A stretch of DNA of 64,000 nt from a virus. Made by a program: the position numbers and the translations under genes. The stretch is taken from IMG/VR virus record IMGVR_UViG_3300019458_000022; one strand, written 5' to 3'. Shown here piece by piece: positions 1,456 through 24,519 of this stretch; the stretch's first letter is position 1, and each line of letters starts with the position of its first letter. A model generated the notes under the pieces. That model had not been told where the DNA came from. It ran no database searches and was given only the letters and a program-made list of their open reading frames with translations.

Positions 1456-1471
1456 GTTCGACTCCCTTCCT

Positions 1472-2556: not shown

Positions 2557-2572
2557 TGCAAAACGTGTGCCA
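2557..2572 (-). promoter_or_regulatory. sigma54 -24/-12 promoter 1 (TGGCACACGTTTTGCA)
   Basis: matches TGGCAC-N5-TTGC, GG-N10-GC spacing; intergenic; CTGCCA-N3-CGGCAG at 2614-2628. Confidence 0.85.
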
Positions 2573-2646
2573 CTCTGAGACACGGTTAATTCGCTCGTTT
2601 TCAATGGGTCCGACTGCCATGACGGCAGGACTGCCTGCCGCCTCCG

Positions 2647-4134
2647 TCACCTGATCCTGCGGATCTCCTTCCGGACCCGGCCGAAGTCCTTCGCGCGCCG
2701 CGCGACCGCGTTGAGGAGTTCGGCCTGTTTCGTCGAGAAACGCTCGTTGTGGCTGCGCTCCCACCGGTGCGCGAGTTCGTGCGTGAGCGTGTAGAGCACC
2801 TGATGGGCCGCGACCGAGAACTTCCGGTCGAGCTTGGCGACGTCGATGAGGACGCCCTTGTCGTCGTCGGACCAGTGCGCGTCGTGCGACTTCGAGTCCC
2901 TCATGAGGCCGATGTTCGCGACCTCCAGGTCGGGAAACGCCTCTTCGAGGATCTCGATCGACCGGTCCATGAGGGCGAGGATCTTCCGGAACCGCGCGCT
3001 CTTCTCGGGGTGCCACTCGCGCCGCGGGTTCGTCGAGCGGTCCTCGATGATGACTCCCCGGCAGGGGACCAGGGACTCCAGGAGCCGGTTCATCCTCTCC
3101 TCGGCGCTCTCGACCACGGACTGGATGCCGGAAGTGACGAGCGCCGCCCGGCGGTCGTCCTCCAGGAAGGACTCGGCCAGGTTCTCCTCGACCTCTCTCG
3201 GCTTGGGCGCGACCGGCGCCGACCGCTTGATCTTGCGCTGCTTCAAGTTGTAGGTGAAGCGCTTCTTGACCGGCTGAGGGGGGATCTTGGAGGAGAGGGG
3301 ATTCTCCTGCTCGTACCTCATGCGCTCCCGGAGGCGCCGGAAGGCGTCCTCCAGGCCGGGATTCGCGAGGCGCTCCCGGGCCGGGGTGAAGTCCTTGTAC
3401 GTCGTCCGCTCGAAGTTGACGACGTAGCCGTCCGTGCCCCCGGTCCACTCGTCGAACTGGGGGAGGCCGTTCGAGAGAACGACGATGTGCCCGCGGTACT
3501 CCTGGGGCTTCCGGGCCTTGTAGACGGGGTGGCCGACGATCTCGGAATGGAGCGGCGAGGGCTCCAGGTCGAAGCCGATCTTCTCGCCGTTGAGGAAGAT
3601 CGAGGTCTTGGAGAGCCGCGCGTATGAGAGCATCTCGCTCAGGTGATCCGGGTAGATGTAGCTGTTCGGGTGGTACCGGATGACGAAGGTGACGCCGGGC
3701 TTTTCGGTCGTGGGCTCGTCCTTGAGTTCGGCTCCGCCCAGGATCTCAGCCTGCGTGACCTTGAACTTCCGGCCTTCGGCGACGCTCGTGATCGAGAAGT
3801 CCTTGACCTGTCGGTTGAAGAGGATGATGGCCTTGGCAACGCCGTTCCCGCCGGTCCGATCGCCTTCCTCGTTCGTCTTGGCGCCCAGGCAGAGGAACCG
3901 GTTGAGGAAGACATCCGTGGTCATCCCGCAGCCGTCGTCGGCGAACGTGAGGACCCAGTCCTTGTCCACGGTCGCCTCTCGGACGAGGCCGATCCGGACC
4001 TCCCGCGAGCGGCTGTCCACCGAGTTCTGGAGCATCTCGGTTGCCGACTTGACCAGCTTGTCCCCGGCGTAGAGCCGGTCGGCGTAGGCGCTCCAGACCT
4101 CGCGGGCGTCGATCTTGAGTTCGAGCTTCGGCAT
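2647..4134 (-). CDS. GHKL (HATPase_c/MORC-like) ATPase with C-terminal HExxH zincin-like domain
   Basis: EMLQNSVD, DDGCGM, GGNGVAK Bergerat motifs; THELAHRWERSHNERF. Confidence 0.8.
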   Translation of the reverse strand: MPKLELKIDAREVWSAYADRLYAGDKLVKSATEMLQNSVDSRSREVRIGLVREATVDKDWVLTFADDGCGMTTDVFLNRFLCLGAKTNEEGDRTGGNGVAKAIILFNRQVKDFSITSVAEGRKFKVTQAEILGGAELKDEPTTEKPGVTFVIRYHPNSYIYPDHLSEMLSYARLSKTSIFLNGEKIGFDLEPSPLHSEIVGHPVYKARKPQEYRGHIVVLSNGLPQFDEWTGGTDGYVVNFERTTYKDFTPARERLANPGLEDAFRRLRERMRYEQENPLSSKIPPQPVKKRFTYNLKQRKIKRSAPVAPKPREVEENLAESFLEDDRRAALVTSGIQSVVESAEERMNRLLESLVPCRGVIIEDRSTNPRREWHPEKSARFRKILALMDRSIEILEEAFPDLEVANIGLMRDSKSHDAHWSDDDKGVLIDVAKLDRKFSVAAHQVLYTLTHELAHRWERSHNERFSTKQAELLNAVARRAKDFGRVRKEIRRIR

Positions 4135-4163
4135 CGCCGTCTCCCTAAAGACCCCCTCTCTAC

Positions 4164-4179
4164 CGCAAAACGTGTGCCA
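4164..4179 (-). promoter_or_regulatory. sigma54 promoter 2 (TGGCACACGTTTTGCG)
   Basis: consensus match ~30 bp upstream of GHKL start; CTGCCA/TGACAG/TGGCAG at ~4243-4268. Confidence 0.85.
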
Positions 4180-4281
4180 TACTGGATATCATACACAAAC
4201 CTCAAAATCACGCGAAAAACGAAGGTCGCTCGTGCGGGCGCCCTGCCAGGGGGGTGACAGGATGGCAGCCGGGAACGGGGC

Positions 4282-4617
4282 CTAGCTATCCTTGTCCCGG
4301 GCGCCCTTTCTCTCCTCCACGGCCCTCCGGTGCCAGGCCCGGTTGTTCATGATTTGGTGGAACGTATCGAGGGCGTCCACGGCGATCTTCACGTTGTACA
4401 TCAGCCGGTCCCGGATGCGTTCGAGCGTGACCGGATCGTCGGTATCGTGGTCGTACGGCACCGGCCGGTGATGAAAGGCCCGGTACCGGGACCGGTCCAC
4501 GACGACGATCTCGATCCTGCGATCGCCCTCCTCGTCGCGCCCGAAGGTCTCGCGCGCAAGCGCCTCGACCTGGCGCTGGAAGGTCTCGATCTTCTTCTCG
4601 TCCAGGAGGTCACGCAT
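4282..4617 (-). CDS. hypothetical protein
   Basis: ATG 4617 overlapping upstream gene end. Confidence 0.65.
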   Translation of the reverse strand: MRDLLDEKKIETFQRQVEALARETFGRDEEGDRRIEIVVVDRSRYRAFHHRPVPYDHDTDDPVTLERIRDRLMYNVKIAVDALDTFHQIMNNRAWHRRAVEERKGARDKDS

Positions 4618-4879
4618 CGGTTGTTCCTCCGGCATCCTGGCCGAACGCGCACGCATGGCTTCCCTGCGTCCATCCGCAAAGGCGGCAGCAATCGCCGCGC
4701 CGGTACTCCTCGATCGCCTTCCTCACGTCCGGGTCGTTCAAGGTCGCCTCCTCGTCGAACTCCCCGAGCCATTTCCAGCCCTTCCTCTGGAGCGGATCGA
4801 CGAAGAAGTTCCCGTCCCTCCGTTTGAGAAGGAAGGCGCCGTCCTTGGCCAAAAGATGGGTCTTCGGGTCGTGATGCAT
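4610..4879 (-). CDS. hypothetical protein with C-terminal CxxC...HxC
   Basis: ORF track; packing. Confidence 0.6.
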   Translation of the reverse strand: MHHDPKTHLLAKDGAFLLKRRDGNFFVDPLQRKGWKWLGEFDEEATLNDPDVRKAIEEYRRGDCCRLCGWTQGSHACAFGQDAGGTTDA

Positions 4880-4948
4880 GGGCTTACCCGATCTGTTCCA
4901 GGTGGACGAAGAGGGAGACGTGACGGGTATGGAGGGAGTTCGACATGT

Positions 4949-6394
4949 TTAGGCCCAGCCCTTCTCCCTGAGAAACTCCACGTTCTCCACGGCCGCCATG
5001 AACGCGAGTCCGGAAAGGCGCCCGAACTCCTGGTACCACGACTGGTCGTGGCCGTTCCCCTTCCGATGGGCGAATTCGTGGACGAGTAGATTGACCCAGG
5101 TCGCGGTGTTCCCGCGGGCAAAGAAGCGCTTGCCCACGCGCTTCCGGTTGACGTTGACCTGCCGGAGCACGTCGTTCCAGGTCGCGCAGTACCTGTCCCG
5201 GTCCATGGTGTAGATCTCGACCTCGAACGCGCCGATCGAGAGCTTCCCCCCGAGCCACTGGGCGAACGCCACGAAGTCCTTCTCGTCGTCGGTCCAGTCG
5301 TCTTCGGGAATGGTCTCGGCCTCTCCGAAGGAGGGCGCGAACACCTGGCTCGTGCTCGGCGCATGGGTCCGGACAAGGTCGCGGACGGCGTCCGTCTGGC
5401 CCCGGAGATCGACGAGGGGGAGGCCGTCCTGGACCGCGCGGACGTTGTTGTCCGGGTCCATGGGATTGAGGCGGACGACGTTCTCCCCGAACCGCTTCTT
5501 GACGTAGAGCGCGCCCGCCTTCTCCTTGTCGAAGACGGCGCTTGAGACGGCCTCCTCGACCCACAGCTTCGAGGCATCTTCCCGGCTCATCTTCTCCATC
5601 CGGTGGTTCGCGAGGCACCCGAAGACCTGCCGGAGATACGACCGGGGGACGACGTCCCGTTCCGGCTTGAGCGGGACCCGCTGCTGGACGTCGATGTGGA
5701 ACGGAAAGCCGTCGTCCTTGATCGGCTCGATGGGGATGCCCATCTCGTAGATCCACGGAGTCTCGCCGTTCTGGAGCGAATAGAGCCGGATTTCGGTTTT
5801 CCGGACCCTCTGGACCATGACCTCGTTTTCCACGAAAACCGTGGGAAGGCTGGCCTCGAAGCTGTCGGCGCGCGTGTAGGTCGGGAGCGTAAGCCCCACC
5901 ATCTGGAAATCGAGGCCCGGGGGCGGGATGAAGAGCTTGAGATACCACCGGATGTCCTGCGCGTCCTGCGCCGTCCAGGACGGGATCTCGCAGACGATCA
6001 AGGTCCCGCGCTCGCGCGAGTTGGCCCGAACGGTCCGCTCGAACTCCTTCCGCTTCCACTTGAAGTGGACCGTCTTCCCCACGGTCTCGACAATGACGTC
6101 GTCGGAGACCGCGATCATCTCCTTGAGGCCGCGCCCCATCCGGCCGCGCTTGAGCGGGGAATCCTTCTTGCCGCTCGCGAAGATCGTCCAGATCTCCTTG
6201 GGGTCCTGGAACCCGCGCGGGACTTCGTCCTCGATCGAGATCCTGGTGTAGCCGGGTTCCGACCGGACCTCCAGGATCACGCGCTTGGCGCCCTCCTCGT
6301 CGAAGGCGTTCTGGACGAGTTCCCGGACGAGATGGCCCGGAGGCCGATGGAGGTTCTGCGCCCGGAACGCCCGTTCGTCGATCTCGAAACCCAT
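4949..6394 (-). CDS. second GHKL ATPase with C-terminal HExxH domain
   Basis: ELVQNAFD, IEDEVPRG, GRMGRGLKE; LVHEFAHRKGNGHDQSW. Confidence 0.8.
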   Translation of the reverse strand: MGFEIDERAFRAQNLHRPPGHLVRELVQNAFDEEGAKRVILEVRSEPGYTRISIEDEVPRGFQDPKEIWTIFASGKKDSPLKRGRMGRGLKEMIAVSDDVIVETVGKTVHFKWKRKEFERTVRANSRERGTLIVCEIPSWTAQDAQDIRWYLKLFIPPPGLDFQMVGLTLPTYTRADSFEASLPTVFVENEVMVQRVRKTEIRLYSLQNGETPWIYEMGIPIEPIKDDGFPFHIDVQQRVPLKPERDVVPRSYLRQVFGCLANHRMEKMSREDASKLWVEEAVSSAVFDKEKAGALYVKKRFGENVVRLNPMDPDNNVRAVQDGLPLVDLRGQTDAVRDLVRTHAPSTSQVFAPSFGEAETIPEDDWTDDEKDFVAFAQWLGGKLSIGAFEVEIYTMDRDRYCATWNDVLRQVNVNRKRVGKRFFARGNTATWVNLLVHEFAHRKGNGHDQSWYQEFGRLSGLAFMAAVENVEFLREKGWA

Positions 6395-6399
6395 GGGGT

Positions 6400-6639
6400 C
6401 TACCTCTTCTCCCTCCGGTTCTGCGCGCCCATCGACGAGGCGACGATGAACCAGGCTTCCTTCCGATCGAGTCCGAGTTGCCGGTTGAGTTCGTCCGCTC
6501 GCTCCTTGGCCTGGTCGTAGCGCTCGAACTCGCCTTCCACCTGGACCGGGGTATAGCCCGGGACATCGCGCTCGGCGAGGCCGATCGCGTGCCCGGTCGC
6601 GGTCACGACCGCCGTGAACGCCTTGTTGCCTTTCGACAT
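6400..6639 (-). CDS. hypothetical protein
   Basis: GGGGGAG RBS; packing. Confidence 0.7.
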   Translation of the reverse strand: MSKGNKAFTAVVTATGHAIGLAERDVPGYTPVQVEGEFERYDQAKERADELNRQLGLDRKEAWFIVASSMGAQNRREKR

Positions 6640-6648
6640 GGCTCCCCC

Positions 6649-6888
6649 CTAAAGGATGTTCTTCCCTGCCTCGTCGAGCTTCACGATCTGGAAGCCGCCC
6701 GCGGTCGGCCAGTCGATCCCGATCACGCCCCCGCCCAGGGTCCGGACGTTCTCGGCCAGTTCCCCGGCCGCGCTCACGAGGAGCGCGAGCGCCATCAAGG
6801 GATCGCGTTCGACGCGCTTGGCGGCCTCCTCGACGGACGCCTTGACGCGGGTCCGGACATCGAAGTTGGCGACGTCGTTTCCGTCCAT
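6649..6888 (-). CDS. hypothetical protein
   Basis: AGGAGG RBS. Confidence 0.7.
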   Translation of the reverse strand: MDGNDVANFDVRTRVKASVEEAAKRVERDPLMALALLVSAAGELAENVRTLGGGVIGIDWPTAGGFQIVKLDEAGKNIL

Positions 6889-6899
6889 GGTCTTCCTCC

Positions 6900-7613
6900 T
6901 TAGTCGATGTTCGCCTTGAGCCCGATTTCGCGGGCGATCATGCGCTTGTAGTCCATGGAGAGCCCGGCCGCGTCCGTCACCAGTTCGCAGAGCGCGCGCT
7001 CGTACTCCGGGTTCTCGCCGTCATCGGACTTGAGGTCCGAAGCCAGCTTGACGAGGTCCCTGACGGTGACCTTGCGCGACAGGATCTTGGAGTCGAGGAC
7101 TGACGAGGGGACGTCCACCTTGCCGGTCCGGAGGGACATGCGGACCTCGCAGTTCGAGCAGAAGAGGTACTCCTCTCCGGAGATGAACGCGCGCCGGGCT
7201 TCCTGGAGCGTGGCCTTCCGCGTCCGCTGGCCGTCGTCGCGCGCGTCCTTGGCGCAGTCGGCGCAGAGGAAGATCTTCCGCCTGTCGCTCGTCCAGGCCG
7301 CGTGGATGGCGGGCGCCTTCGGTGACGCCGTCGCGGCCCCGGCCACGATCTCCGGGTAGACGATCAGGTGGTCCCCGTCCTTCACCCCGGCGTCCGGGAG
7401 CGTCTGCGTCTCCTGGAGACGCTTCCCGCCCTCCTTGTGGTCGAGGCTGTAGGACATGGGTGTTCCGTCCGGCGCCGTCACCGGAAGCGTCATCTTCGTG
7501 ATGATGTTCGGGAGGATCTTCGCCACGGTCACGGTCGGCGAGATCTTGGCGCGGACCGACTTCGCGCCGGTCTGGTCGAGGAACGTCACCTGGATGCCCT
7601 GCGGATCGCTCAT
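6900..7613 (-). CDS. ubiquitin-like (EsaB/YukD-type beta-grasp) domain fused to Zn-binding C-terminal domain
   Basis: IQVTFLDQTGAK...KMTLPVTAPDGTPMSYSLDHKEGGKRLQETQTLPDAGVKDGDHLIVYPEIVAG, then CADC...CSNC; AGGAG RBS. Confidence 0.75.
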   Translation of the reverse strand: MSDPQGIQVTFLDQTGAKSVRAKISPTVTVAKILPNIITKMTLPVTAPDGTPMSYSLDHKEGGKRLQETQTLPDAGVKDGDHLIVYPEIVAGAATASPKAPAIHAAWTSDRRKIFLCADCAKDARDDGQRTRKATLQEARRAFISGEEYLFCSNCEVRMSLRTGKVDVPSSVLDSKILSRKVTVRDLVKLASDLKSDDGENPEYERALCELVTDAAGLSMDYKRMIAREIGLKANID

Positions 7614-7816
7614 GCCGGTTTCTCCTTCTTCCTGGCTTCCTGAGCCTTTTCGGCCCGTTCCTTGCATCCGTCGCAGTACGCCTTTCCGCCCCGCATCCAG
7701 CGGGCCGGTTCTTCCTCCCGGTGCGACCGCCCCGTGAATGAGCAGACCCCCTTGAACGCCCACGTCCATCCCGGATTGAAGGCGCTCCCTTCGTAGGGCC
7801 TGAACGCGGCCGTCAT
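7610..7816 (-). CDS. small Zn-finger protein
   Basis: CSFTG...YCDGC; overlaps both neighbours. Confidence 0.6.
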   Translation of the reverse strand: MTAAFRPYEGSAFNPGWTWAFKGVCSFTGRSHREEEPARWMRGGKAYCDGCKERAEKAQEARKKEKPA

Positions 7817-8067
7817 GCGACCACCGCCTTCTCGCGCCGGTACTTCCGCGCGCAGTCTGGACCCAGGGGATATCCGCCCATGTTCCACGGGTGATGCTGG
7901 TGGGCTTCCTCCCCGCCTGCGGGTTCGAACTGGCCGCAGCAGATGAAGACCCACATGGCTTTGTCCTTCTCCTTGATCGGCTTCCCGCAGTAGGCGCAGG
8001 GCCATTCGCTGCCCTTGCAGCGCTCGGCATTCTCATGGAAGCGGGGGCCGGAAAAGGGCGTCATCAT
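7813..8067 (-). CDS. small Zn-finger protein
   Basis: CAYCGKPI...GPDCA. Confidence 0.65.
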   Translation of the reverse strand: MMTPFSGPRFHENAERCKGSEWPCAYCGKPIKEKDKAMWVFICCGQFEPAGGEEAHQHHPWNMGGYPLGPDCARKYRREKAVVA

Positions 8068-8555
8068 GAGAGCGACCTTTCCAGCGTCAGGAGAGCTTCC
8101 CGCTGGCTCCGAAGTTTCGCCAGGGCGTCCTCGGTTTCCGCGATCTTCTCGTCCACGCCGATGATCTCGTTGTTGACGTGCGACCGCTTGGCGGCCTTGA
8201 GGATCTCGGGATGCCCGGCCGCGTACCGGGCCCATGCCTCGGAGAGCACCGAACGGGCCTTTTGGACAGCGGACAGCGTGTAGTCGAACGCCTTGAGCGA
8301 ACCGGCCCGCGACAGGTTGACCTCGTTCGTGCTGTTCGCGTCCCAGGAGCCATCCGCCTTGAGATGCAGGTGGGCTGAGAGATGATACTCCACGCGGTTG
8401 ATGACGACCGGTATCGGGGTCGTCGGGCTCCCGTCTTCGTCGTAACGACGGGACTCCAGGTAGACGTGCGACCCGCTCGTCACCGAGAAATCGACCGGCC
8501 CGATCGACGTCTCAAGGACGCCCTTCGCCGGATTCTGGTGCTTCCGCGCCTTCAT
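8064..8555 (-). CDS. hypothetical protein, C-terminal coiled coil
   Basis: first gene after promoter 3; alternative GTG start 8567. Confidence 0.7.
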   Translation of the reverse strand: MKARKHQNPAKGVLETSIGPVDFSVTSGSHVYLESRRYDEDGSPTTPIPVVINRVEYHLSAHLHLKADGSWDANSTNEVNLSRAGSLKAFDYTLSAVQKARSVLSEAWARYAAGHPEILKAAKRSHVNNEIIGVDEKIAETEDALAKLRSQREALLTLERSLS

Positions 8556-8579
8556 CGTCTCGCTCACGACCTCTCCTAC

Positions 8580-8595
8580 TGCAAAACGTGTGCCA
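8580..8595 (-). promoter_or_regulatory. sigma54 promoter 3 (TGGCACACGTTTTGCA)
   Basis: consensus; TGGCAG-N4-CTGCCA at 8645-8660. Confidence 0.85.
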
Positions 8596-8607
8596 CGCTG
8601 ACACCTA

Positions 8608-8636
8608 TTTATACTCGCCGGAACCGCGGTTGTCAA
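8608..8636 (-). promoter_or_regulatory. sigma70-type promoter in tandem with sigma54 promoter 3
   Basis: TTGACA-N17-TATAAA. Confidence 0.6.
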
Positions 8637-8668
8637 TGCCAATCTGGCAGACGGCTGCCAGCCATTCT

Positions 8669-9301
8669 CTACTTCTTGACCTTGCCCCACACTTCGCGCA
8701 CGACGGCGGGCGGCGCGTCCTTGAGGCGTTCCGGGATCTCGAAGAAGAACACGGCCGTGGGCTCGACCTTGACGTGGCCGCCCACGACCGCGAACCGGAC
8801 GATCTGGCCCTTTTCCCGCTCGTTCAGGTTGTTGACCGCGACCTGCCAGGCTTCCCCGTCCCGGGCCACGAGGACGTGTCCGCGGAGGCCGAAGCTGTTC
8901 CGGTTCGATGAGACGGCCGCGACCTTGAACTCCTTGACCGCGTGCTCGGGCTCGAAGGCTTTGGCCGGGAAGTAGACCTTCCGGGGGTTGAACTCGCGCT
9001 GGTCGGGGTCGATGAGGTCGAGGCCGAGCCGGGCGCCCTTCGCCTCCTTCGCGTGGCCGGTGGTCCCGATCTTCCGGGCGAGCTTCACGTCCTTCTCGTC
9101 GAGAAGCTCTCCGTGGAGCCGGTCGCCGGTCTCGTAGTCGTGGAACCCGTGGGTCACGCGCACCCGGTAGCGACCCGGCGGAAGCCAGTTGGAGCCGCCG
9201 ACGTCGTTCAAGATCATGACGTCCGTGATGTCGCTCAGGCGCTTCCCGCAGGTGACGAACCCGACGAGGCCGACTTCCCGGATCTCGCTCTTCGCGCCCA
9301 T
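8669..9301 (-). CDS. hypothetical protein
   Basis: GGAGGAA RBS, ATG 9301. Confidence 0.7.
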   Translation of the reverse strand: MGAKSEIREVGLVGFVTCGKRLSDITDVMILNDVGGSNWLPPGRYRVRVTHGFHDYETGDRLHGELLDEKDVKLARKIGTTGHAKEAKGARLGLDLIDPDQREFNPRKVYFPAKAFEPEHAVKEFKVAAVSSNRNSFGLRGHVLVARDGEAWQVAVNNLNEREKGQIVRFAVVGGHVKVEPTAVFFFEIPERLKDAPPAVVREVWGKVKK

Positions 9302-9309
9302 GGTTCCTC

Positions 9310-9672
9310 CTAGCCCTTCTTCAAAAGCTCGATCCCGTGGAGCCCGTGGATGTCCAGATACTCCGTACGGATCTCCGCGACCGACGTCGTCCATCGGCCC
9401 ACCCTCCCGCGTTTCAGCCGCCAGGAGAAGGCTTCGGAATGGTCGTGGAGCAGCTTGTCCCCCTGCTTGGCAAAGGCGCCGACCTCGTGGATCGGACGCA
9501 CTTCGGCCGGTCCCGAGAACTTCAGGACGACGAAGTGCGTGTAGCCCAGGCGCTTGGCTTCGGCGAGGACGCCCTCGTAGTTGGTGTACCAGAAGTCGAT
9601 GTACGTGAACCGCTTGTAGCGGATGCCCCGGACGATCTTCTCCTGGGTCTGGCTCCGGTACTGGGTCTTCAT
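9310..9672 (-). CDS. hypothetical protein
   Basis: ATG 9672; aromatic-rich natural composition. Confidence 0.6.
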   Translation of the reverse strand: MKTQYRSQTQEKIVRGIRYKRFTYIDFWYTNYEGVLAEAKRLGYTHFVVLKFSGPAEVRPIHEVGAFAKQGDKLLHDHSEAFSWRLKRGRVGRWTTSVAEIRTEYLDIHGLHGIELLKKG

Positions 9673-9721
9673 CGGGTCTTCGTTCCTTTCGCGGCCTTCT
9701 GGACGAGTTCGACGGCCCCCC

Positions 9722-11428
9722 TCATGCCTGGCCTCCCTCGAACGGAATCCCTTCCTCGCCTCCCCAGAAGTCGCCGTGGCGGTCGCAGCGGCACTTCGGG
9801 CAGACCTCGGTCTTGGGCGCGTTATAGGTCCCGCACCCGTAGCCTCCGCACTTGACGTAGCCCTTGGGGGTCCCGCAGACGTCCTCGACGCCGGGCTCTC
9901 CGGGGCGCGCGACCTTGTTCGTGCAGGTCTTGGCCTTCCGCACGTTGTACTGGAAGCACCTGTTGCACCGCCAGGACTTGAGGTCGTGCCCGCACTCGCA
10001 GACCTTGACCTCGGGCCGGTTGACGTGCGAGCAGGCCAGGCAGCACCAGGAGCCGCGCGCGGTCCCGCAGTGGCAGGTGTCGGCCGGGTTCTCGGAATGG
10101 GGGACGTTCTCGCTGCGGCAACGGTTGTCCGGGCAGAACCAGGTCCCCTCGACCGCGCAGCGCGTGAGGACCGTCTGCTTGATCCCCTTGTACTCGTCAT
10201 GCTTCTTGACCGTGGCCTTGATCTGGTAGGTCTTCCCGACCTCAAGCTCGCCGTTCGTCGCGAACCAGGTCACGACGTTCCCCTTGGGGTCCACCATCTT
10301 GTGGATGTAGGTGACGCCGAACTCGCTCTGCGAGTTGATGACCTTCGTGACCGTCAGCGTGAAGACCTCGCGCGCGCCGACCGTCCCGAAGTGCTCGCTC
10401 TTGGCCTCCCGCTCGTACCGGATCTTCTGCTCGGCCACGAAGCCCATCTCGCGCTTGTAGACGGTGATCAGGCTCGCGGCGATCCCGAAACCCTTCTCGA
10501 CGACCGCGTCCCGGGAGCAGACCGCCACGAGGTTGAACTCGTAGTCGTTCTTCTCGGCCTTCTCGGCGAGGGTCCCGCGGAGCCACGCGAGCGCGTCCTG
10601 GGCGAGCTTCGCGTCCTCGGTCACGGGGACCGGGGGCTGCTCCTTGGCGCCGGGGAAGGGAGTCATCCACGCGAACGCGAGGTCGGCCGTGGCCGACCGC
10701 ATCTCGCCCTCGGGAAGCTGCCGGGCCTTGGACCGGGAGAGCCAGCCCTCGGTCCGGACGGCGAGCGCCACGTAGGAGAGGTAGTCGGCGAGCCAGATCA
10801 CGCGGGCGCCGCCGCCCCATCCAGCGCCCTCGGCCTCGGAGAGGACGTCGCCCACCGACAGGAGGTACTCGGCGGCCTGGAGGATCTGCTCGGGGTCCTG
10901 GTGCCCAAGGAAGTCGGCGATGCACTGCCGTCCGACCTGCTTCCACTCCCCGTTCTCGTTCCGGACGACGAAGGTCTCCTTCCGGCGCCGGAGGTACCCG
11001 CAGTGGTCGCAGGTAGCCTTGGCCTCGCGGTAGGTCTTGGGAAGCTCCTTGCCCGGCACCGCCCGGAGGAGGACAGCCGCGTCGTTCTCGCCGTTGGCGG
11101 CCAGGTGCTGGATCGTGCCCATGAACTCCCACCCGGCGAACTTGGGGGTCCCCCCCTCGATCGAGACCTCGTAGACCACCTTGGTCCGGGTGACGGGCTT
11201 GCCGTCGCCGTCCCGGAGGACGGAGACGCCGTCCGGGTCCAGGTTGTCCCGGACCGGCTCCTCCCGCTTGATGGGCTCGGAGACCTTGAGGACGACCGGC
11301 GGGCAGCCGATCTTGTCCGCCCGCTTCACGAGCGCCAGGATGCGCTCCTGGAGCCGGGGCAGGTTCTCCGCCGGGATCAGGTGGACCTTGGGGTCCTCGG
11401 CCATCTTCGTCTCCGCGTTTGTCAGCAT
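9722..11428 (-). CDS. phage-type protein with OB-fold-like domain and multiple C-terminal Zn ribbons
   Basis: SEHFGTVGAREVF...IKATVKKHDEYKGIKQTVLTRC; WFCPDNRC, WCCLACSHVN, WRCNRCFQYN, CGTYN...CPKC. Confidence 0.75.
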   Translation of the reverse strand: MLTNAETKMAEDPKVHLIPAENLPRLQERILALVKRADKIGCPPVVLKVSEPIKREEPVRDNLDPDGVSVLRDGDGKPVTRTKVVYEVSIEGGTPKFAGWEFMGTIQHLAANGENDAAVLLRAVPGKELPKTYREAKATCDHCGYLRRRKETFVVRNENGEWKQVGRQCIADFLGHQDPEQILQAAEYLLSVGDVLSEAEGAGWGGGARVIWLADYLSYVALAVRTEGWLSRSKARQLPEGEMRSATADLAFAWMTPFPGAKEQPPVPVTEDAKLAQDALAWLRGTLAEKAEKNDYEFNLVAVCSRDAVVEKGFGIAASLITVYKREMGFVAEQKIRYEREAKSEHFGTVGAREVFTLTVTKVINSQSEFGVTYIHKMVDPKGNVVTWFATNGELEVGKTYQIKATVKKHDEYKGIKQTVLTRCAVEGTWFCPDNRCRSENVPHSENPADTCHCGTARGSWCCLACSHVNRPEVKVCECGHDLKSWRCNRCFQYNVRKAKTCTNKVARPGEPGVEDVCGTPKGYVKCGGYGCGTYNAPKTEVCPKCRCDRHGDFWGGEEGIPFEGGQA

Positions 11429-11439
11429 GCCCTCTCTAT

Positions 11440-11455: not shown

Positions 11456-11577
11456 CAGTAGCTACTGTTTAACCCCTCAAAAACGAGCGAATTTCGAGGT
11501 TTTTGAGGGTTCCGGACTGCCATGGGGGTGCCCGGACTGGCTGTCAAACCGGCCTGCCTGCCACGGTGGCAGCCGCT

Positions 11578-14610: not shown

Positions 14611-14624
14611 GGGGCCTTTTACGC

Positions 14625-15284: not shown

Positions 15285-15294
15285 CGCTCCCTCG

Positions 15295-17310: not shown

Positions 17311-17313
17311 GGT

Positions 17314-17846: not shown

Positions 17847-17858
17847 CGTTCGTCCTCC

Positions 17859-18280: not shown

Positions 18281-18304
18281 GCCGATTCTCGTTCGCCCGA
18301 TCGC

Positions 18305-18715: not shown

Positions 18716-18742
18716 GGTCTTCTCCTACTTTTGCTGCTTATC

Positions 18743-18958
18743 TCACTCTCCGAGCTTCGTGCCTTCGACCCGCGTTTCCATGAGCTTCGTTCCGACCCGG
18801 GCGAGTCCGGCGATCGCGAACGAGGACCCGACGCCCTTGACGTAGTAGCGCCTGTCGTCGCTCACCATGATGACGACCGTGGCCTTCGGGCCGATCTTCG
18901 CGGCCAAGTCGAGCGCCGCGTTGTCCACGATCTCGGGGGTTTCGTTCGTGTACGCCAT
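18743..18958 (-). CDS. hypothetical protein
   Basis: GGAG RBS. Confidence 0.6.
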   Translation of the reverse strand: MAYTNETPEIVDNAALDLAAKIGPKATVVIMVSDDRRYYVKGVGSSFAIAGLARVGTKLMETRVEGTKLGE

Positions 18959-18980
18959 TCCATGGTCTCCGGGTCTTCCC

Positions 18981-19168
18981 TCGCATCCGGACCCCGCGGG
19001 GCCCGGGTGCGAGGGGGCGCCCCCTCTCGGGGCGCCCGCTCGACTTCGCTGACTCGCGCAATCACGTCTGATTAGCCGTTCCCGCTACCGCATCTTCGTA
19101 TCCTCCATTGTCCTCGTATCGCCCTCCCCGCAGGAGGGCGCTACGAGGCCCGCCCTTTCGGGCGGGCC
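18981..19168. repeat. cluster of four strong hairpins/palindromes in an intergenic gap
   Basis: 18981-19012 stem; perfect palindrome GAGGGGGCGCCCCCTC 19011-19026; 15-bp interrupted stem 19112-19148; GGCCCGCCC-TTTC-GGGCGGGCC 19147-19168. Confidence 0.7.
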
Positions 19169-19187
19169 ACTGGAGAGATGGGGGAAG

Positions 19188-20480
19188 TTAGCTCTTGAGG
19201 GCGCCCACCCCCTTCTCGATGATCTCGCCGCCGAACTCCTCCAGGAGGATCGCCCCGTCCGCGTCCCGCTCGCGGCGGTAGTGGGCGGCGGCGGTCACCG
19301 CGCGCTGGAGGTCGAGGAGCGTGTCCCGCTTGGCGCTCAGCGGCTGGTAGGCAGCCAGGATGTCGTCCCGGATCTCCTCGGTCATCCCCGGAAGCTGGAC
19401 GATCTCGTTGACGGCCTTCCGGACCTCGATCTCGACCTTCTGGAGGCCCTTCATCTTCTTGGCGTTCTCCAGGAGGTACTCGGGGTTGAAGACCGACCGG
19501 ATGAGGTCGGCGACCTTGGCGAAGATGAGCGCGTTCTCCTTCTTGAGCGTCTCGTCGGACCAGAACTCCTCGTCCAACTGCCGCCCCAGGTGCCGCTGCG
19601 CGAAGTCCTCGCCGATCCGGGCCGTGTTGTCGCAGACGGCCTCGTAGAGGCCGACCTGGACGCCGAGGCCGCCGTGCCCGGTCTCGCTGTTGCGGAGGAA
19701 CGCGGCCGGGAAGACCATGTGGTTCTTCGACTTGTCCCACTCGGGGCTCCAGAACCACCCGCCCTGGTTGGGGTCGTCGCTCTGGACCTGCTGACCGGCG
19801 TAGACGAAGTCGGTGCCCCCGCCCTTGCCCTTGGTCTTCTTCTCGGGGGTCTGGACCTGGACGCCCTTGTCCAGGTTGTTGAGGTCCACGAGGAGGCCCG
19901 GGTTGACGAGGCCGATGTGGAGCCGGGTGGGGCTGAGCGCCCAGTCGAACGCCTTGGCGCCCCTGGCCCAGGGCTTGTCCTCGCCGTCGCCGCCGTCCTT
20001 GCCGGTCACCACCTGGACGGCCGTGGACACGAGGTCCAGGCTGTCGAGCGGGCGGTACCGGTCGGAGAGGAACCCGCGGACCTCGTCGCCCAGGAGCCGG
20101 ACGAGCCGCTTGTCGCCGTTCCCCTTCTTCCGCCAGTACTCCAGGTTGTAGGCGAGAAGGTCCAACGCGCCCGCGCCCCTCACCCGCGAGTAGTAGTGGC
20201 CGTTCACGCCGAACTTCTGCGCGAACTGCGGGTGGACCTGCTCCTGGATCGGGTGCGCGCCCCCCTCGAACCTGAGGAAGAGGCCGCCGGGCTTGGGCTT
20301 CGGGTTCTCCTCGGTCGCGGCCTCGCCGACCTCGCCCACGAACTCCATCTTCGTGAGCGGCACGATGTAGTCCTTGCACCGCGCCTTGACCTCCCGGAGG
20401 CCCTTCACGAGTTCCGGGATGTCCTTCAGGACGCGCACGCGCCGCGGGCGCTCCTGGCTGCCGAGGTTTCCATCCGCCAT
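19188..20480 (-). CDS. DUF932-like protein
   Basis: VRGFLSDRYRPLD, LRNSETGHGGLGV, VCDN. Confidence 0.7.
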   Translation of the reverse strand: MADGNLGSQERPRRVRVLKDIPELVKGLREVKARCKDYIVPLTKMEFVGEVGEAATEENPKPKPGGLFLRFEGGAHPIQEQVHPQFAQKFGVNGHYYSRVRGAGALDLLAYNLEYWRKKGNGDKRLVRLLGDEVRGFLSDRYRPLDSLDLVSTAVQVVTGKDGGDGEDKPWARGAKAFDWALSPTRLHIGLVNPGLLVDLNNLDKGVQVQTPEKKTKGKGGGTDFVYAGQQVQSDDPNQGGWFWSPEWDKSKNHMVFPAAFLRNSETGHGGLGVQVGLYEAVCDNTARIGEDFAQRHLGRQLDEEFWSDETLKKENALIFAKVADLIRSVFNPEYLLENAKKMKGLQKVEIEVRKAVNEIVQLPGMTEEIRDDILAAYQPLSAKRDTLLDLQRAVTAAAHYRRERDADGAILLEEFGGEIIEKGVGALKS

Positions 20481-20532
20481 GTCTCTTCTCCTTCCCCGGA
20501 TCATTCCGGGATTCGCTTCACGACTCACCCTA

Positions 20533-20548
20533 TGCGAATCGTGTGCCA
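20533..20548 (-). promoter_or_regulatory. sigma54 promoter 5 (TGGCACACGATTCGCA)
   Basis: GG-N10-GC kept; CTGCCA-N3-TGGCAG at 20620-20634. Confidence 0.75.
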
Positions 20549-20638
20549 ATCCGGATACTGTTCTGAGAGGCCGTTGTCAAGCGAATTTCGCACATTCGTT
20601 CGTCTCCGTGGCAGCCGCGCTGCCACCGTGGCAGGCAG

Positions 20639-20848
20639 CTATGGCGCCTTGGCAGGCTCCCCCGGGTAGTCCGTTTCGATCCGCCGCTTGCACGGGTCGC
20701 AGTACGCCTTCCCGGTCGGACCGCGCTGGTTCGTCCAGGTCCGCATCCAGCGGGGTGGGTTGCGCTTGCACATCGAGCATAGGCCCCGGGAGGCGTAGGA
20801 ACGCACCCCCGCGAAGAAGGCGGGATCGAACGGAACGAAGGCGTTCAT
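20639..20848 (-). CDS. small Zn-finger protein
   Basis: CSMC...YCDPC. Confidence 0.6.
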   Translation of the reverse strand: MNAFVPFDPAFFAGVRSYASRGLCSMCKRNPPRWMRTWTNQRGPTGKAYCDPCKRRIETDYPGEPAKAP

Positions 20849-21228
20849 GCGCGATCCACGACGAAGGTCTTCTTGAGATCCAGGTGTTCCTTCCGGAGCC
20901 CCGGAAGGTCGATGACCTTCCGGATCTCGGGGAGGACGGCCGCGAGTCGCGCGATCGTCAGACGGCCGCCTTGGATGAGATCGCGCCCCATGTGGAAAAG
21001 CAACCTGTCCCCGTCGTCCCGGACTTCCAATCGCGCGGGCGCGTAGGCAGGACCCATGTAGAGCCCCTGCCAATAGGGGTGGCCCTTCCTCCACAGGATC
21101 TTCCAGCTTTTGTGGACGAGAAGGATCTTGGCCGTCGCGCCGTAATCGACGCCTGGCGAATAGCGGGGGTCGATCCGCTGGTCCTCGAAATGCCCGATGA
21201 TTCCGGTCTTCCGGCGATTCTTCTTCAT
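20845..21228 (-). CDS. hypothetical protein
   Basis: overlap packing. Confidence 0.6.
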   Translation of the reverse strand: MKKNRRKTGIIGHFEDQRIDPRYSPGVDYGATAKILLVHKSWKILWRKGHPYWQGLYMGPAYAPARLEVRDDGDRLLFHMGRDLIQGGRLTIARLAAVLPEIRKVIDLPGLRKEHLDLKKTFVVDRA

Positions 21229-21240
21229 GACAGGCCGAGA

Positions 21241-21909
21241 CTACTCCTTGCCCCCCTCCATCTCGATCCGGGGAAGCGCGCCCTTTTCCTTGAGCGAATC
21301 CAGGCCCGCCTTGTGGATGGTGTTGGCGAGATGAGCTTCGATCTCGCCCTTGGCGGCGGCGACGGTTTCCTCCATCGTCTCCTGGAAGCGCTCCTGCATC
21401 CATGGGATGTTCTCGCGGATGTCCTGGGCCAGCTTGAAAAGGACGTCCTTGATACTCTTGAGATCGGCCTTCGTGACACGGTCCTTGGCGAGAAGCGCGT
21501 TCACGTCCTTCTCGACATTCTCCGCGGCCTCCGCCAGCCCCTTGAAATCCCGCTTGACCTCGTCGGCCCACAGCTTCCTCAGGTCCCGCTTGGGCGGTTC
21601 AGGGACGTCCTTGCCGCCGATCTGCTCGACGGTGCAGGGCGTTCCGCCGTGGATGTTGGCGTTCAGGACGAGGTTCGCGAACTGGATCTCCGACATCATC
21701 ACGTTGATATGCGGAACCGCATCGGTCGGCGACGCCCGGTCTCCGTGGAAATCACGGATGAGCGCGGCCGGTTGGATCTCCAGCGTGATCGCGTGATAGT
21801 GCTTGAACGGGCTCATGAAGAGCCGCTTCGAGCCTCCGCCGATCTGGACGCGGTTGATGTGGATGACCGCGTAGCTCGGATGCTCGATCCGTTCCTCGTT
21901 TTTAGCCAT
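21241..21909 (-). CDS. conserved phage-type hypothetical protein
   Basis: HPSYAVI...LFMS...MSEIQFANLV...GTPCT, helical C-terminus. Confidence 0.75.
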   Translation of the reverse strand: MAKNEERIEHPSYAVIHINRVQIGGGSKRLFMSPFKHYHAITLEIQPAALIRDFHGDRASPTDAVPHINVMMSEIQFANLVLNANIHGGTPCTVEQIGGKDVPEPPKRDLRKLWADEVKRDFKGLAEAAENVEKDVNALLAKDRVTKADLKSIKDVLFKLAQDIRENIPWMQERFQETMEETVAAAKGEIEAHLANTIHKAGLDSLKEKGALPRIEMEGGKE

Positions 21910-21919
21910 GCGCGCCCTC

Positions 21920-22120
21920 TTACCCGGCGACCTCGAATTCGAGGTAGGCAAGCTCGACCCAACAGCCGTAGGTGCTTCCGGCGATGTAGATCCGATCCTT
22001 CCGGCTGTCCCGGTATCGGACTTCGCCTTCATACCACGTCTCGTTCTTCGAGCCGTCCGGGTTCTTGGCGAAGTTGAACCGCCAGCGGATGCGAGTCCGG
22101 TTCTTCGGGATATCGGCCAT
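21920..22120 (-). CDS. small SH3/Tudor-like hypothetical protein
   Basis: TWYEGEVRY pattern; start uncertain. Confidence 0.5.
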   Translation of the reverse strand: MADIPKNRTRIRWRFNFAKNPDGSKNETWYEGEVRYRDSRKDRIYIAGSTYGCWVELAYLEFEVAG

Positions 22121-22160
22121 GGTCGTCAGCATCACGGTCCTCACTTGTCCAGGATCTCGC

Positions 22161-22316
22161 CTACTTCGCGTGAACGCTATTCGGATGGTACCGTTTCCAC
22201 CAGCAGCCCTCGTGGAAGTCCCCGTCGCGCGTTCTCATGAACGCGCCGGTGATCTTCTGCTTGCACTCGGCGCATACGGATGGCGCCTTGCTCCGCTTGC
22301 CTGTCCTTCCGGGCAT
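22161..22316 (-). CDS. small LIM-like Zn finger
   Basis: CAECKQKI...FHEGC; AGGAG RBS. Confidence 0.55.
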   Translation of the reverse strand: MPGRTGKRSKAPSVCAECKQKITGAFMRTRDGDFHEGCWWKRYHPNSVHAK

Positions 22317-22329
22317 GCCCTCTCCTGCT

Positions 22330-22653
22330 CTAGAACTCCACGAACTTCTTGCCGATCCGCTTCTCGGTTCTACGGCCGTCCGGATGCGCGGTGACCAGGA
22401 AGACGTCGGCGAGCACCTTGTCGCCCTTCTTGTCCCAGGTGTACATCGCCGAGCCGGTCTTCGTGAGGTCGATCCGATGCCGCTCCTCGATCCACTCCTT
22501 GCGCCCGTCTTCCCACCGGACGGTCGCGCCCTTCCGCATAGCCGCCCACGCGCGCTGCTCGACGATCCTCCGGCTGTCCGAGTCGAAGATGTTGAGGATC
22601 TCCCCACGGTCCGTCAGGACCGTGATCACATGGAGCTTGAGTTTGGGCTTCAC
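22330..22653 (-). CDS. hypothetical protein
   Basis: GTG overlapping upstream TGA. Confidence 0.65.
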   Translation of the reverse strand: MKPKLKLHVITVLTDRGEILNIFDSDSRRIVEQRAWAAMRKGATVRWEDGRKEWIEERHRIDLTKTGSAMYTWDKKGDKVLADVFLVTAHPDGRRTEKRIGKKFVEF

Positions 22654-23483
22654 TTCCGGAAGTCCTTCTCGAACTCGAACTTGACCTGGATCACCCTCCC
22701 ATCCTTGGGCTCGTACCAGACCTTGCCCACGGTCTTGAGGGAAGGCCCGGCGAGGATCGCGAAGACCGCGCTCGTCAGGCGCTCGGTCTCGATCCGGAGG
22801 AGGTCGAGCTTGTCGGGCGCCGCGCCTAGTTGCTCGACGAGCGCCTGGGCGACCATGGCGAGGATCTGGCCTTTGTGGGGCGGCGGGTTTCTGTAGATGC
22901 GGGGATCTTCGTGGCTCTCGCAGAGGCGCGTGAAGTCGTAGTCGTTGGCGAGCCGGAGGAGCGCCGGGAACTGCTTGGACTCGATGAGGTCGTGGGCGAG
23001 GTCGTTCGCCCACGTCCCGGCGATCTCGGACGTGTAGATCCGCGGGTCGGGCTTGCCCGACCTGTCGGCGCGCGACCAGACCCAGTAGGCGAGGTCGTAG
23101 ACGTCGGCGTTCCTGCCCAGGTCGGCGACCGCGGCCTTGACCACGCTCTCCCGGCGCTTGGCGTACTCGCGGTCGGACTTCCGGCCGTGATCGTCCATGA
23201 TCTTCCGGAACCCCTCCTGGGCGCGGATGAGCGGCTCGACGAGCTTGCGCGCGAACCAGCCGCCCTGTCCCAGGATGTCGTCCTGCCAGGCGTCCAGGAC
23301 GTCGTGCCAGGAGACGCGGACTTTGGCGCCCTTCTCCTCCTCGACCGTGTAGTAGGCGTAACCGTCCGCCTTCTGGATCTGGAGGAGCTTCCCGACGAGG
23401 CCCTGGGCCTTGTCCGAACGCTCCTGGATGGCCTTCAGCCGTTCGAGGTCCCTGTCGATGGACGCGATGCCGGTCTTCCGCAT
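22650..23483 (-). CDS. hypothetical protein
   Basis: GAGGAG RBS, ATG 23483. Confidence 0.7.
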   Translation of the reverse strand: MRKTGIASIDRDLERLKAIQERSDKAQGLVGKLLQIQKADGYAYYTVEEEKGAKVRVSWHDVLDAWQDDILGQGGWFARKLVEPLIRAQEGFRKIMDDHGRKSDREYAKRRESVVKAAVADLGRNADVYDLAYWVWSRADRSGKPDPRIYTSEIAGTWANDLAHDLIESKQFPALLRLANDYDFTRLCESHEDPRIYRNPPPHKGQILAMVAQALVEQLGAAPDKLDLLRIETERLTSAVFAILAGPSLKTVGKVWYEPKDGRVIQVKFEFEKDFRK

Positions 23484-23494
23484 GGTCGGTCTCC

Positions 23495-24115
23495 TCAGAG
23501 AAGGTTGATCCCGAGATTCTCGAAGCTCTGGATGTCGCGCTCGGCCTGGGCGTTCTCCCGGGCCTTCTGGTTGGCGCGCTGCTGGTCCTCCCAAGCCTTC
23601 CGGTCCGCCTCGGCGCGCACGCGGGCCTCTTCGTCGAGGCGCCGGAAGTACGTGGCGGCGCGCTCCGGGTTGGGCTCCCCGTATGGGTCGTGGCAGATCC
23701 GGCAAAGGTCCCGGCCGTCCTCCAGCATCACCGGAGTGACCCTGGCGGGATCGGAGGGCTCGTGCGTGTGCCAGCCGACCCGGATGTCGCCCCGGCGGAT
23801 CTCCAGGACGTCGCCGACCTGCTCGCCCGGGAACGTGTCGCAGTCGATCCAGAAGGGGTGCCTGGACGTCCAGCGGTAGACGCGGTTGAAGCGCTCGATG
23901 CCCTCCTTGTAGCTGCCGTGGATCACGTACTCCGGGAGGGTCTTGCCCTCCCAGTACCGCTCGATCCGGGCCTGGGTCGCCTTCTGAAGGTTCGTGGGCG
24001 TGTAAAAAGAGCCCCCGTTGAAGACGAAGGAAAGCTCATGAGCGACCGCGATCTTCCCGTCCGGGAACGTGATGCGATGCGCCTTGGCCTTCACCGCGTA
24101 CAGGTATATGCCCAT
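23495..24115 (-). CDS. hypothetical protein, first gene after promoter 6
   Basis: GGAGG RBS. Confidence 0.7.
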   Translation of the reverse strand: MGIYLYAVKAKAHRITFPDGKIAVAHELSFVFNGGSFYTPTNLQKATQARIERYWEGKTLPEYVIHGSYKEGIERFNRVYRWTSRHPFWIDCDTFPGEQVGDVLEIRRGDIRVGWHTHEPSDPARVTPVMLEDGRDLCRICHDPYGEPNPERAATYFRRLDEEARVRAEADRKAWEDQQRANQKARENAQAERDIQSFENLGINLL

Positions 24116-24147
24116 CTCTCGTTCGCCTCCAAATCTACCCCCTCTCC

Positions 24148-24163
24148 TGCAAAACGTGTGCCA
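24148..24163 (-). promoter_or_regulatory. sigma54 promoter 6 (TGGCACACGTTTTGCA)
   Basis: consensus; shares GTTTTTGAGGGTTCCG with promoter 4; CTGCCG-N3-TGGCAG at 24235-24249. Confidence 0.85.
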
Positions 24164-24213
24164 CTCTGGATACCGTTTGGAAAGCCCCAAAACGTGCGTT
24201 TTTGAGGGTTCCG

Positions 24214-24519
24214 TCAGGGCTCCACGCTGCCTGCCTGCCGTGTTGGCAGTCGGATGGGCCTGTCAGGTGGCAGGAAGTAGCAGTAGGGAGGGTAGGGGGC
24301 GGGAACCTCGGTCCCGCCCCCCCTCCCCTTGACGACGTGGGTCACGCCGATGGGCTTCCCGTCCTTCCGGCGGGTGTCGTAGATCCAGGCCCAATCGACG
24401 TCCGGACGCTCGGCGAGTTCCTGGACGCGGCGCAAGGCCCTCCGGAGGAAGGTGAACTCGCTGTCGCGCCTTCCTGGCCGGTGGGTACCTGGACCGAAGT
24501 ACCAGGTCTCGTAGGCCAC
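24214..24519 (-). CDS. hypothetical protein (3' end overlaps candidate enhancer)
   Basis: GTG start right after upstream stop. Confidence 0.45.
   Translation of the reverse strand: MAYETWYFGPGTHRPGRRDSEFTFLRRALRRVQELAERPDVDWAWIYDTRRKDGKPIGVTHVVKGRGGGTEVPAPYPPYCYFLPPDRPIRLPTRQAGSVEP

Follow-up and report, generated by a model that had tools for sequence, protein, structure and literature searches.

Promoters recognised by sigma-54 RNA polymerase are fully off without an activator. At glnAp2 and pspA, which answer to NtrC and PspF, respectively, TGGCAC-N5-TTGC has a dyad activator site 70-140 bp upstream, and the DNA between the two is A/T-rich and bendable; the psp system, a stress response, can be set off by phage proteins. 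The same arrangement is found six times in a 64,000-nucleotide stretch of DNA (hereafter the window) of the IMG/VR virus record IMGVR_UViG_3300019458_000022, which forms part of a phage-like mobile element. These six motifs are quite probably sigma-54-dependent promoters, and the palindrome upstream of them, judged by its occurrence in host chromosomes, the site of the activator of a host chaperone regulon (dnaK, groES/EL, clpB and hsp20). The glnAp2 system differs from the element in the sequence of the activator site, NtrC binding TGCACCA-N3-TGGTGCA. The Pu promoter of the TOL plasmid pWW0 likewise combines sigma-54 and an enhancer on a mobile element, using the RpoN of the host and the plasmid-encoded activator XylR.

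Phages lambda and T4 depend on host GroEL and DnaK-DnaJ, and infection induces the sigma-32 heat-shock regulon; more generally, phage infection commonly provokes the protein-folding stress response of the host. The element would resemble lambda and T4 in the coupling of the life cycle to host folding stress, and it carries a DnaJ of its own. The two phages differ in that they use the chaperones themselves, not the transcriptional switch of the regulon.

The closest described chromosomal promoters are those of chaperone genes. In Flavobacterium psychrophilum, mapped transcription starts place sigma-54-type promoters (motif SM4) before groESL, lon, dnaK, grpE-dnaJ, htpG and clpB, the activator of which was left unidentified (PMC9723704). 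A scoring-matrix survey published in 2025 reported the same sigma-54 promoter enrichment in Bacteroidota and Planctomycetota (PMC12316311). Both papers describe the promoters; the palindrome and its activator were not found there, and a literature search found no paper describing this palindrome or its use by a phage. Chaperone sigma-54 promoters are already predicted in print, and the identity of the palindrome is new here. According to the genome matches presented below, these promoters have the same -24/-12 box, the same palindrome and the same spacing classes as those of the element, from which they differ in serving chaperones, whereas the promoters of the element serve non-chaperone genes of a mobile element.

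The use of sigma-54 by phages is rare but has precedent, since phage YuA of Pseudomonas aeruginosa is described as strictly dependent on the sigma-54 of its host (Ceyssens et al. 2008, cited in PMC5053324; bioRxiv 10.1101/2023.10.13.562163). This runs counter to a preliminary description of the window, whose author was not aware of such control as a standard phage programme. In the likeness to YuA as portrayed in these sources, a virus-like element without its own rpoN would run part of its programme from promoters read by host sigma-54. YuA differs in being a 58-kb siphovirus of a proteobacterium, for which no heat-shock enhancer link is reported.

Sigma-54-type boxes and upstream palindromes

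The sequence TGGCACACG(T/A)TT(T/C)GC, searched as the pattern TGGCACACGWTTYGC, has six copies in the window, all on the minus strand, where no match is expected by chance (0 in 100 shuffles). The matches begin at positions 2558, 4165, 8581, 11441, 20534 and 24149. Five of the six boxes are identical, and the sixth (P5) reads TGGCACACGATTCGC. All ten specified positions of the sigma-54 consensus are matched at exact spacing, or nine of ten at P5, which has TCGC; GG at -24, GC at -12 and the TGGCAC-N5-TTGC spacing are present at all six sites, and a looser sigma-54 pattern applied to the window returned the same six sites and no others. The boxes occupy intergenic gaps of 101-158 bp and are oriented as their genes; each has on its own strand, 12-53 nt downstream, a start codon that comes with a purine-rich Shine-Dalgarno sequence. 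The boxes are as follows.

P1: 2558..2572, minus strand, sigma-54 box TGGCACACGTTTTGC, exact match; predicted transcription start at about 2546; start codon ATG 2505, with GGAGGAAGG, 52 nt downstream of the box.
P2: 4165..4179, minus strand, sigma-54 box, exact match; ATG 4134, 30 nt downstream.
P3: 8581..8595, minus strand, sigma-54 box; predicted start 2 nt ahead of GTG 8567, the start codon called; the next ATG in frame is at 8555.
P4: 11441..11455, minus strand, sigma-54 box; predicted start 1 nt ahead of ATG 11428, the start codon called; the next ATG in frame is at 11404.
P5: 20534..20548, minus strand, sigma-54 box with the -12 region TCGC; ATG 20480, 53 nt downstream.
P6: 24149..24163, minus strand, sigma-54 box, exact match; ATG 24115, 33 nt downstream.

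Upstream of the boxes, the palindrome CTGCCR-N3-YGGCAG occurs four times exactly in the window (2614, 11558, 20620 and 24235), against 0.04 expected, and all four copies sit 41-102 nt upstream of a box. The remaining two boxes, P3 and P2, carry near-palindromes with one and two mismatches, respectively. With the transcription start predicted 12 nt beyond the -12 C, the palindromes are centred at -74, -75, -105, -105, -108 and -136, and an activator-like site at roughly 70-150 bp from the start is found at all six promoters. The upstream sites, with their gaps to the box, are listed below.

P1: 2614..2628, palindrome CTGCCGTCATGGCAG, exact; gap 41 nt, centre at about -75.
P2: 4254..4268, degenerate palindrome CTGCCATCCTGTCAC, two mismatches; gap 74 nt, centre at about -108; additional TGGCAG half-site at 4243-4248.
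P3: 8636..8650, palindrome CTGCCAGATTGGCAT, one mismatch; gap 40 nt, centre at about -74; overlapped by an everted TGGCAG-N4-CTGCCA at 8645-8660.
P4: 11558..11572, palindrome CTGCCACCGTGGCAG, exact; gap 102 nt, centre at about -136; additional half-site at 11517-11522.
P5: 20620..20634, palindrome CTGCCACGGTGGCAG, exact; gap 71 nt, centre at about -105; additional half-sites at 20609-20614 and 20650-20655.
P6: 24235..24249, palindrome CTGCCAACACGGCAG, exact; gap 71 nt, centre at about -105; additional half-site at 24268-24273.

Between palindrome and box, runs of at least four A or T number seven against 1.0 expected in 397 bp, and are found in four of the six regions. The six motifs have every sequence feature asked of sigma-54 promoters, and can be predicted as such with their shared enhancer-like site.

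This is also how they were read in the preliminary description, which correctly saw six minus-strand intergenic boxes just upstream of gene blocks, four exact palindromes at enhancer-like distances and an N5 spacer more constant than RpoN needs, the latter being part of a conserved cassette of about 35 bp discussed below. Other details have changed. The box positions given there are the same six sites, each off by one. The "variant" TGGCAG/CTGCCA pairs assigned to the other two boxes are indeed upstream sites, but are actually the near-palindromes of P3 and P2, and the A-tracts placed between palindrome and box are enriched, but only in four of the regions.

Two further features of these intergenic regions were observed. 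At P4 (11480-11520) and P6 (24185-24215) the minus strand has hairpins with an A5/U5 stem (CCCTCAAAAAC ... GTTTTTGAGGG) between palindrome and box; these hairpins may be terminators of the upstream units or protein-binding or bending sites. The sequence CGAAATTCG is common to P4 and P5.

The palindrome in bacterial chromosomes and in a second viral lineage

In order to trace the module outside the element, the composite pattern CTGCCR-N3-YGGCAG-N41-71-TGGCAC-N5-TTGC was searched in species genomes and IMG/VR viral contigs. For the chaperone calls, the 1.5 kb downstream of each locus was compared with representative proteins, and the families were confirmed with Pfam. At least 120 loci were found in the species genomes, and at 62 of the 120 listed a chaperone gene lies directly downstream, coding for DnaK (24), GroEL or GroES-GroEL (12), ClpB (10) or Hsp20 (16). 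Among the matches listed, the loci with a downstream chaperone are distributed by phylum as follows.

Planctomycetota: 49 of 56.
Bacteroidota: 6 of 8.
Gemmatimonadota: 2 of 2.
Pseudomonadota: 1 of 31.

The presence of the palindrome-box module before chaperone genes in these genomes points to the palindrome as the enhancer of a host sigma-54 chaperone regulon. On this pattern evidence, it is the predicted upstream site of sigma-54 chaperone genes in Planctomycetota, Bacteroidota and Gemmatimonadota, and the element is not alone in having it. In a sample of 201 planctomycete genomes, four matches were obtained with the strict pattern and none with a control read backwards. One complete Phycisphaerae chromosome has the palindrome and the sigma-54 box before groEL, clpB and hsp20, as well as a palindrome with one mismatch before dnaK; this genome encodes one RpoN (rpoN) and about 15 enhancer-binding proteins.

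The spacing of the native modules is comparable to that in the element. Among the matches listed (n=62), the gap between palindrome and box is 70-71 nt in 21 cases and 59-65 nt in 28, and there are minor classes near 41 and 49 nt. Two of the element gaps (71 and 71 nt) equal the commonest native gap and two (41 and 40 nt) belong to a minor native class; those of P2 (74 nt) and P4 (102 nt) fall outside the 41-71 nt range in which native promoters were searched.

The matches in Pseudomonadota are of another kind. Ten of the listed loci are a Bradyrhizobium EF-hand gene (for example L111, L116, L134, L153, L176 and L187). About ten genomes of Bradyrhizobium and related bacteria have a G+C-rich CTGCCG-N3-CGGCAG, a gap of 63-66 nt and a sigma-54 box before this conserved gene. 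The EF-hand module is probably a separate sigma-54 regulon, and most other Pseudomonadota matches look like chance occurrences in G+C-rich DNA.

Directly upstream of a palindrome-driven hsp20 in the Phycisphaerae sequence OY776568.1 lies a gene for an enhancer-binding protein of REC-AAA+(GAFTDA)-HTH_8 architecture (L235:2447-3835, minus strand), which is a candidate heat-shock activator. Such an activator gene occurs within 8 kb at only two of the 120 loci listed, and naming the host activator by gene neighbourhood was ruled out on this count. Two near-identical repeat copies on the Phycisphaerae chromosome, at 1,021,300-1,025,300 (L231) and 1,090,000-1,094,000 (L232), each contain CTGCCAAAACGGCAG and a second half-palindrome. 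They do not adjoin chaperone genes, and could be an insertion sequence or prophage remnant bearing the enhancer.

In the IMG/VR contigs the composite pattern gave 17 matches, where one or two would be expected in random sequence by our own estimate, made without a shuffle. Nearly all belong to one lineage with a record-wide G+C content of 34-45% (single loci up to 50%). Its members have many proteins in common with one another, and BLASTP of this lineage against the element found essentially no common protein, on which ground a shared common regulator of the two was rejected. In 21-40 kb, three contigs of the lineage contain 33-43 palindromes and 15-18 boxes. Spacers differ from box to box (AGGAT, AGCAT, AGTAA and others) and TGGCAC and TTGC stay constant, a signature to be expected of sigma-54 recognition. 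No PF00158 gene was detected in any of five lineage records, including the complete 138-kb IMGVR_UViG_3300014720_000003 (L092-L098), and an activator encoded by the lineage itself was rejected for this reason.

The arrays of this lineage (L075-L091; G001-G005; for example L106-L107, IMGVR_UViG_3300036770_006768) are built of paired CTGCCA-W3-TGGCAG palindromes 29 bp apart, followed by 11 nt, TGGCAC-N5-TTGC, often a second, inverted box, an A/T-rich stretch and a consensus TTGACA-N17-TAnnnT promoter. Dense and partly face-to-face as they are, these arrays could be sponges rather than promoters.

Taken over both groups of viruses, we lean, with less assurance than for the six promoters themselves, towards the view that at least two unrelated mobile-element lineages have copied the sigma-54 chaperone module of their hosts, with expression triggered by the host protein-stress alarm or interfering with it.

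The source of the activator and competing explanations

The window corresponds to positions 62658-126657 of a 168,645-bp ENA metagenome contig, of which positions 3594-165020 (161,427 bp, 96%) were assembled by exact-protein look-ups. The six boxes and their palindromes are the only copies in these 161,427 bp and are confined to 22 kb; they therefore form a local cluster and not the element-wide regulon announced in the preliminary description. The element has a G+C content of 62-63%, is coded almost entirely on one strand, and encodes mostly unknown proteins. Recognisable genes include those for an integrase, a P4 cII-like protein, TnpB, helicases, a Cas4-like nuclease, DnaJ and many glycosyltransferases, along with members of the phage protein families phrog_2319 and phrog_1362, which have homologues in large phages. 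The phage-family proteins, the integrase, the P4 cII-like gene and the near one-stranded coding are features of phage type. No capsid, portal or terminase was recognised in the 161 kb by Pfam, with PHROGs applied to the large proteins of the right arm, and the element is called phage-like, not a phage, for this reason. Known phages and plasmids had no Megablast match to 25 kb of the sequence, and the bare 15-mer box had only single chance matches in IMG/VR, among the matches listed.

No regulator of the sigma-54 type was detected in the element. A six-frame scan of the 161 kb found neither an RpoN box nor a GAFTGA-type loop, the Sigma54 family is absent from the Pfam labels of the genes called there, and tblastn against the same sequence, with RpoN and one enhancer-binding protein from a Phycisphaerae genome as queries, had a best E value of 0.5. 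The only GxxGxGK P-loop of a recognisable ATPase belongs to a classical AAA protein (PF00004) at 32573-33940, 8 kb upstream of the cluster, in which no GAFTGA loop and no helix-turn-helix match were found. The preliminary description had noted the lack of both regulators in the window, had proposed a search of the full contig, and had left the choice between a hijacked host activator and one encoded elsewhere in the element. The lack now extends to 96% of the contig, where no copy elsewhere was found, and this makes a host activator the likeliest source. In this respect the element and pWW0 are alike in being mobile and using host RpoN, and differ in that pWW0 encodes its own activator, whereas none is present in the 96% of the contig read.

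The sequence itself shows the boxes and palindromes, where they lie, their match to the host chaperone modules and, in the part read, the lack of rpoN and of an activator gene; from these data we infer transcription by sigma-54, a host protein binding at the palindrome, an activating signal and a planctomycete host. In the proposed mechanism, host sigma-54 RNA polymerase would form a closed complex on TGGCAC-N5-TTGC. The activator of the host chaperone regulon, an AAA+ ATPase, would bind the palindrome 74-136 bp upstream, loop over the A/T-rich stretch to the polymerase and melt the promoter with ATP. About 15 kb, comprising some 23 genes in six units, would be silent until the host protein-stress response is set off by heat or by the load of infection. 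Since sigma-54 promoters are off without their activator, the element would hand the timing of these genes to a host signalling protein, one that can be defined by its regulon as the activator of chaperone genes. If this is true, part of the element is expressed only when the host protein-folding stress response fires, a second, unrelated phage lineage does likewise on a larger scale, and a previously undescribed phage route to sense or subvert host physiology would be at work. The palindrome could be used as bait for the heat-shock activator of Planctomycetota and Bacteroidota, and as a marker assigning uncultured phages to hosts with this regulon.

Several observations weigh against this reading. 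The genes served are not chaperones or proteases; if the reading holds, the element is plugged into the chaperone regulon without functionally belonging to it. The start codons called for P3 and P4 stand 1-2 nt from the predicted transcription start, so that either the mRNA is leaderless or another start codon is used; the alternative in-frame ATGs at 8555 (P3) and 11404 (P4) are each preceded by their own GAGACG box. A search for RNA found only two sequencing runs that contain the sequence, both of cave-metagenome DNA. With regard to the host, feature-based look-alikes of the peptide deformylase and DnaJ of the element are mixed across phyla, and its TnpB has no close copy in 401 planctomycete genomes; a planctomycete host is the most plausible.

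A cassette of about 35 bp, GTATCCAGAG-box-AGTAGAGAGGG, is conserved, including the N5 spacer and a purine-rich tract from -10 to -1, and such conservation is neither needed by sigma-54 nor seen in host promoters; the simplest explanation is that one cassette was recently copied within the element. A seventh, decayed box, AGGCACACGTTTTGA (L053:3972-3986), lies 3.6 kb left of the window. It is without a palindrome; a TTGTGT-N17-TACAGT promoter precedes it by 8 nt, and an ATG follows at 23 nt. It has retained the spacer (GGCACACGTTTTG is kept) and lost the -12 C, so that the core may also be read by something other than sigma-54. Finally, a sigma-70-type consensus promoter, TTGACA-N17-TATAAA (8608..8636, minus strand), the only such match in the window, stands in tandem between the P3 palindrome and box.

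Three other explanations together account for about a quarter of the probability. The one that survives best, although it is unlikely, is that the sites act as a decoy, which on replicating DNA would titrate the host heat-shock activator and sigma-54 polymerase and so damp or retime the chaperone response, transcription downstream being secondary. The density of palindromes and boxes in the second viral lineage would suit such a sponge, and its boxes often form face-to-face inverted pairs that make poor sense as promoters, each then followed by its own sigma-70 consensus promoter. The boxes of the window also have a T-rich -12 region (TTTTGC), and a T-rich -12 region favours tight closed-complex binding. 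In the element itself, however, six sites are few for a sponge, each transcription unit has one module, always co-oriented and 12-53 nt from the start codon, and five of the six intergenic regions are without a good sigma-70 promoter, which would leave the genes otherwise promoterless.

Still more doubtful is the possibility that the 35-bp cassette and the palindromes are operators or leaders read by element-encoded factors, with transcription from weak sigma-70-type promoters just upstream. The near invariance of the N5 spacer and its flanks and the seventh copy speak for this, as does a -10-like hexamer (AACAGT, AACGGT or TATGAT) present at five of the six sites, 8-9 nt upstream of the box; the TTGACA-N17-TATAAA promoter of P3 also fits, its consensus TATAAA standing 12 nt upstream of the P3 box. 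A -35 element at a consistent distance is nevertheless absent at most sites, Rfam gave no match in window positions 1-26 kb, and the chance that an unrelated operator would match the sigma-54 consensus at ten of ten positions is about 1 in 10^6. The palindrome is also coupled to TGGCAC-N5-TTGC, with spacers that vary, both ahead of chaperone genes across several phyla and in a phage lineage unrelated to the element, and the element and that lineage have no protein family in common that could act as a shared regulator.

Least probable of the three is that the promoters depend on sigma-54 and the activator is encoded by the element, whether in the approximately 7.2 kb (4%) of the contig left unread (which also tells against a host activator), in a part of the genome missing from a contig that is possibly not the whole element, or as a non-canonical protein among the unknown ones. 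The unread part and the classical AAA ATPase near the cluster speak for this, but that ATPase is of the PF00004 type, with no GAFTGA loop and no helix-turn-helix match. The complete 138-kb phage of the other lineage is likewise without PF00158, and a palindrome identical to the chromosomal host enhancer needs no separate activator.

Genes downstream of the predicted promoters and other observations

Most of the genes in the six units have no recognisable function. The units, all on the minus strand, are as follows.

P1 unit: 829..2505, minus strand, three genes whose function is not recognisable (185, 159 and 208 aa), without a Pfam or PHROG family.
P2 unit: 2647..4134, minus strand, one gene of 495 aa, a GHKL-type ATPase with a C-terminal HExxH zincin-like motif.
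P3 unit: 4282..8567, minus strand, nine genes, of which one codes for a YukD-like ubiquitin-fold protein (6900-7613) and another for a second GHKL ATPase (4949-6394).
P4 unit: 8669..11428, minus strand, a 568-aa protein (phrog_2319, 2.6e-81) and two small genes.
P5 unit: 19188..20480, minus strand, one gene of 430 aa, phrog_1362.
P6 unit: 20639..24115, minus strand, about six genes of unknown function.

The first genes of the units thus code for unknown proteins, the GHKL ATPase with the zincin motif, phrog_2319 and phrog_1362. For the 495-aa protein of the P2 unit, Pfam gives HATPase_c_3 at 4.5e-6, and its match to WLM is weak. The stretch between P5 and P4 (11578-19187) is served by other promoters. 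The gene blocks had been described as accessory or anti-defence functions, a label that is not supported, as most of the genes are unrecognisable and the AcrVA2-like gene is located in a stretch with its own sigma-70-type promoter.

The 568-aa phrog_2319 protein has homologues in large phages. Its relatives were found at 12 viral and 44 metagenome loci, all with at most 46% identity, and no close relative of the element is among them. Four of the 12 viral loci have isolated sigma-54-type boxes, located away from the start of the homologue; none of the 12 has the palindrome, and the 44 metagenome loci are without palindrome and without box. The absence of palindrome-box modules at these loci indicates that sigma-54 control is not a trait of this gene family.

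Four successive strong GC-rich hairpins are located 3' of the 430-aa gene of the P5 unit (18959-19187, minus strand), with an RNAfold energy of -132.5 kcal/mol over 229 nt. No Rfam family was matched in window positions 1-26 kb, which include these hairpins; they could be a cluster of terminators or insulators, or a structured RNA.

Two further genes of the element were noted, the DnaJ gene in view of the proposed link to the chaperone regulon. A short DnaJ, with a J domain, zinc finger and C-terminal domain, is encoded to the right of the window (L054:2277-3032), and a peptide deformylase at L054:20734-21237, corresponding to window positions 57775-58278. That this DnaJ feeds into the protein-stress signal of the host is speculation.

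In the left arm, ARAGORN called a tRNA that has the amber-reading anticodon CTA and bears the label Pyl, together with another, odd tRNA-like gene (L061:11167-11240 and 11781-11858), directly behind a TnpB (IS605 OrfB) gene. These calls could represent a suppressor tRNA, or the guide-RNA region of TnpB miscalled as tRNA.

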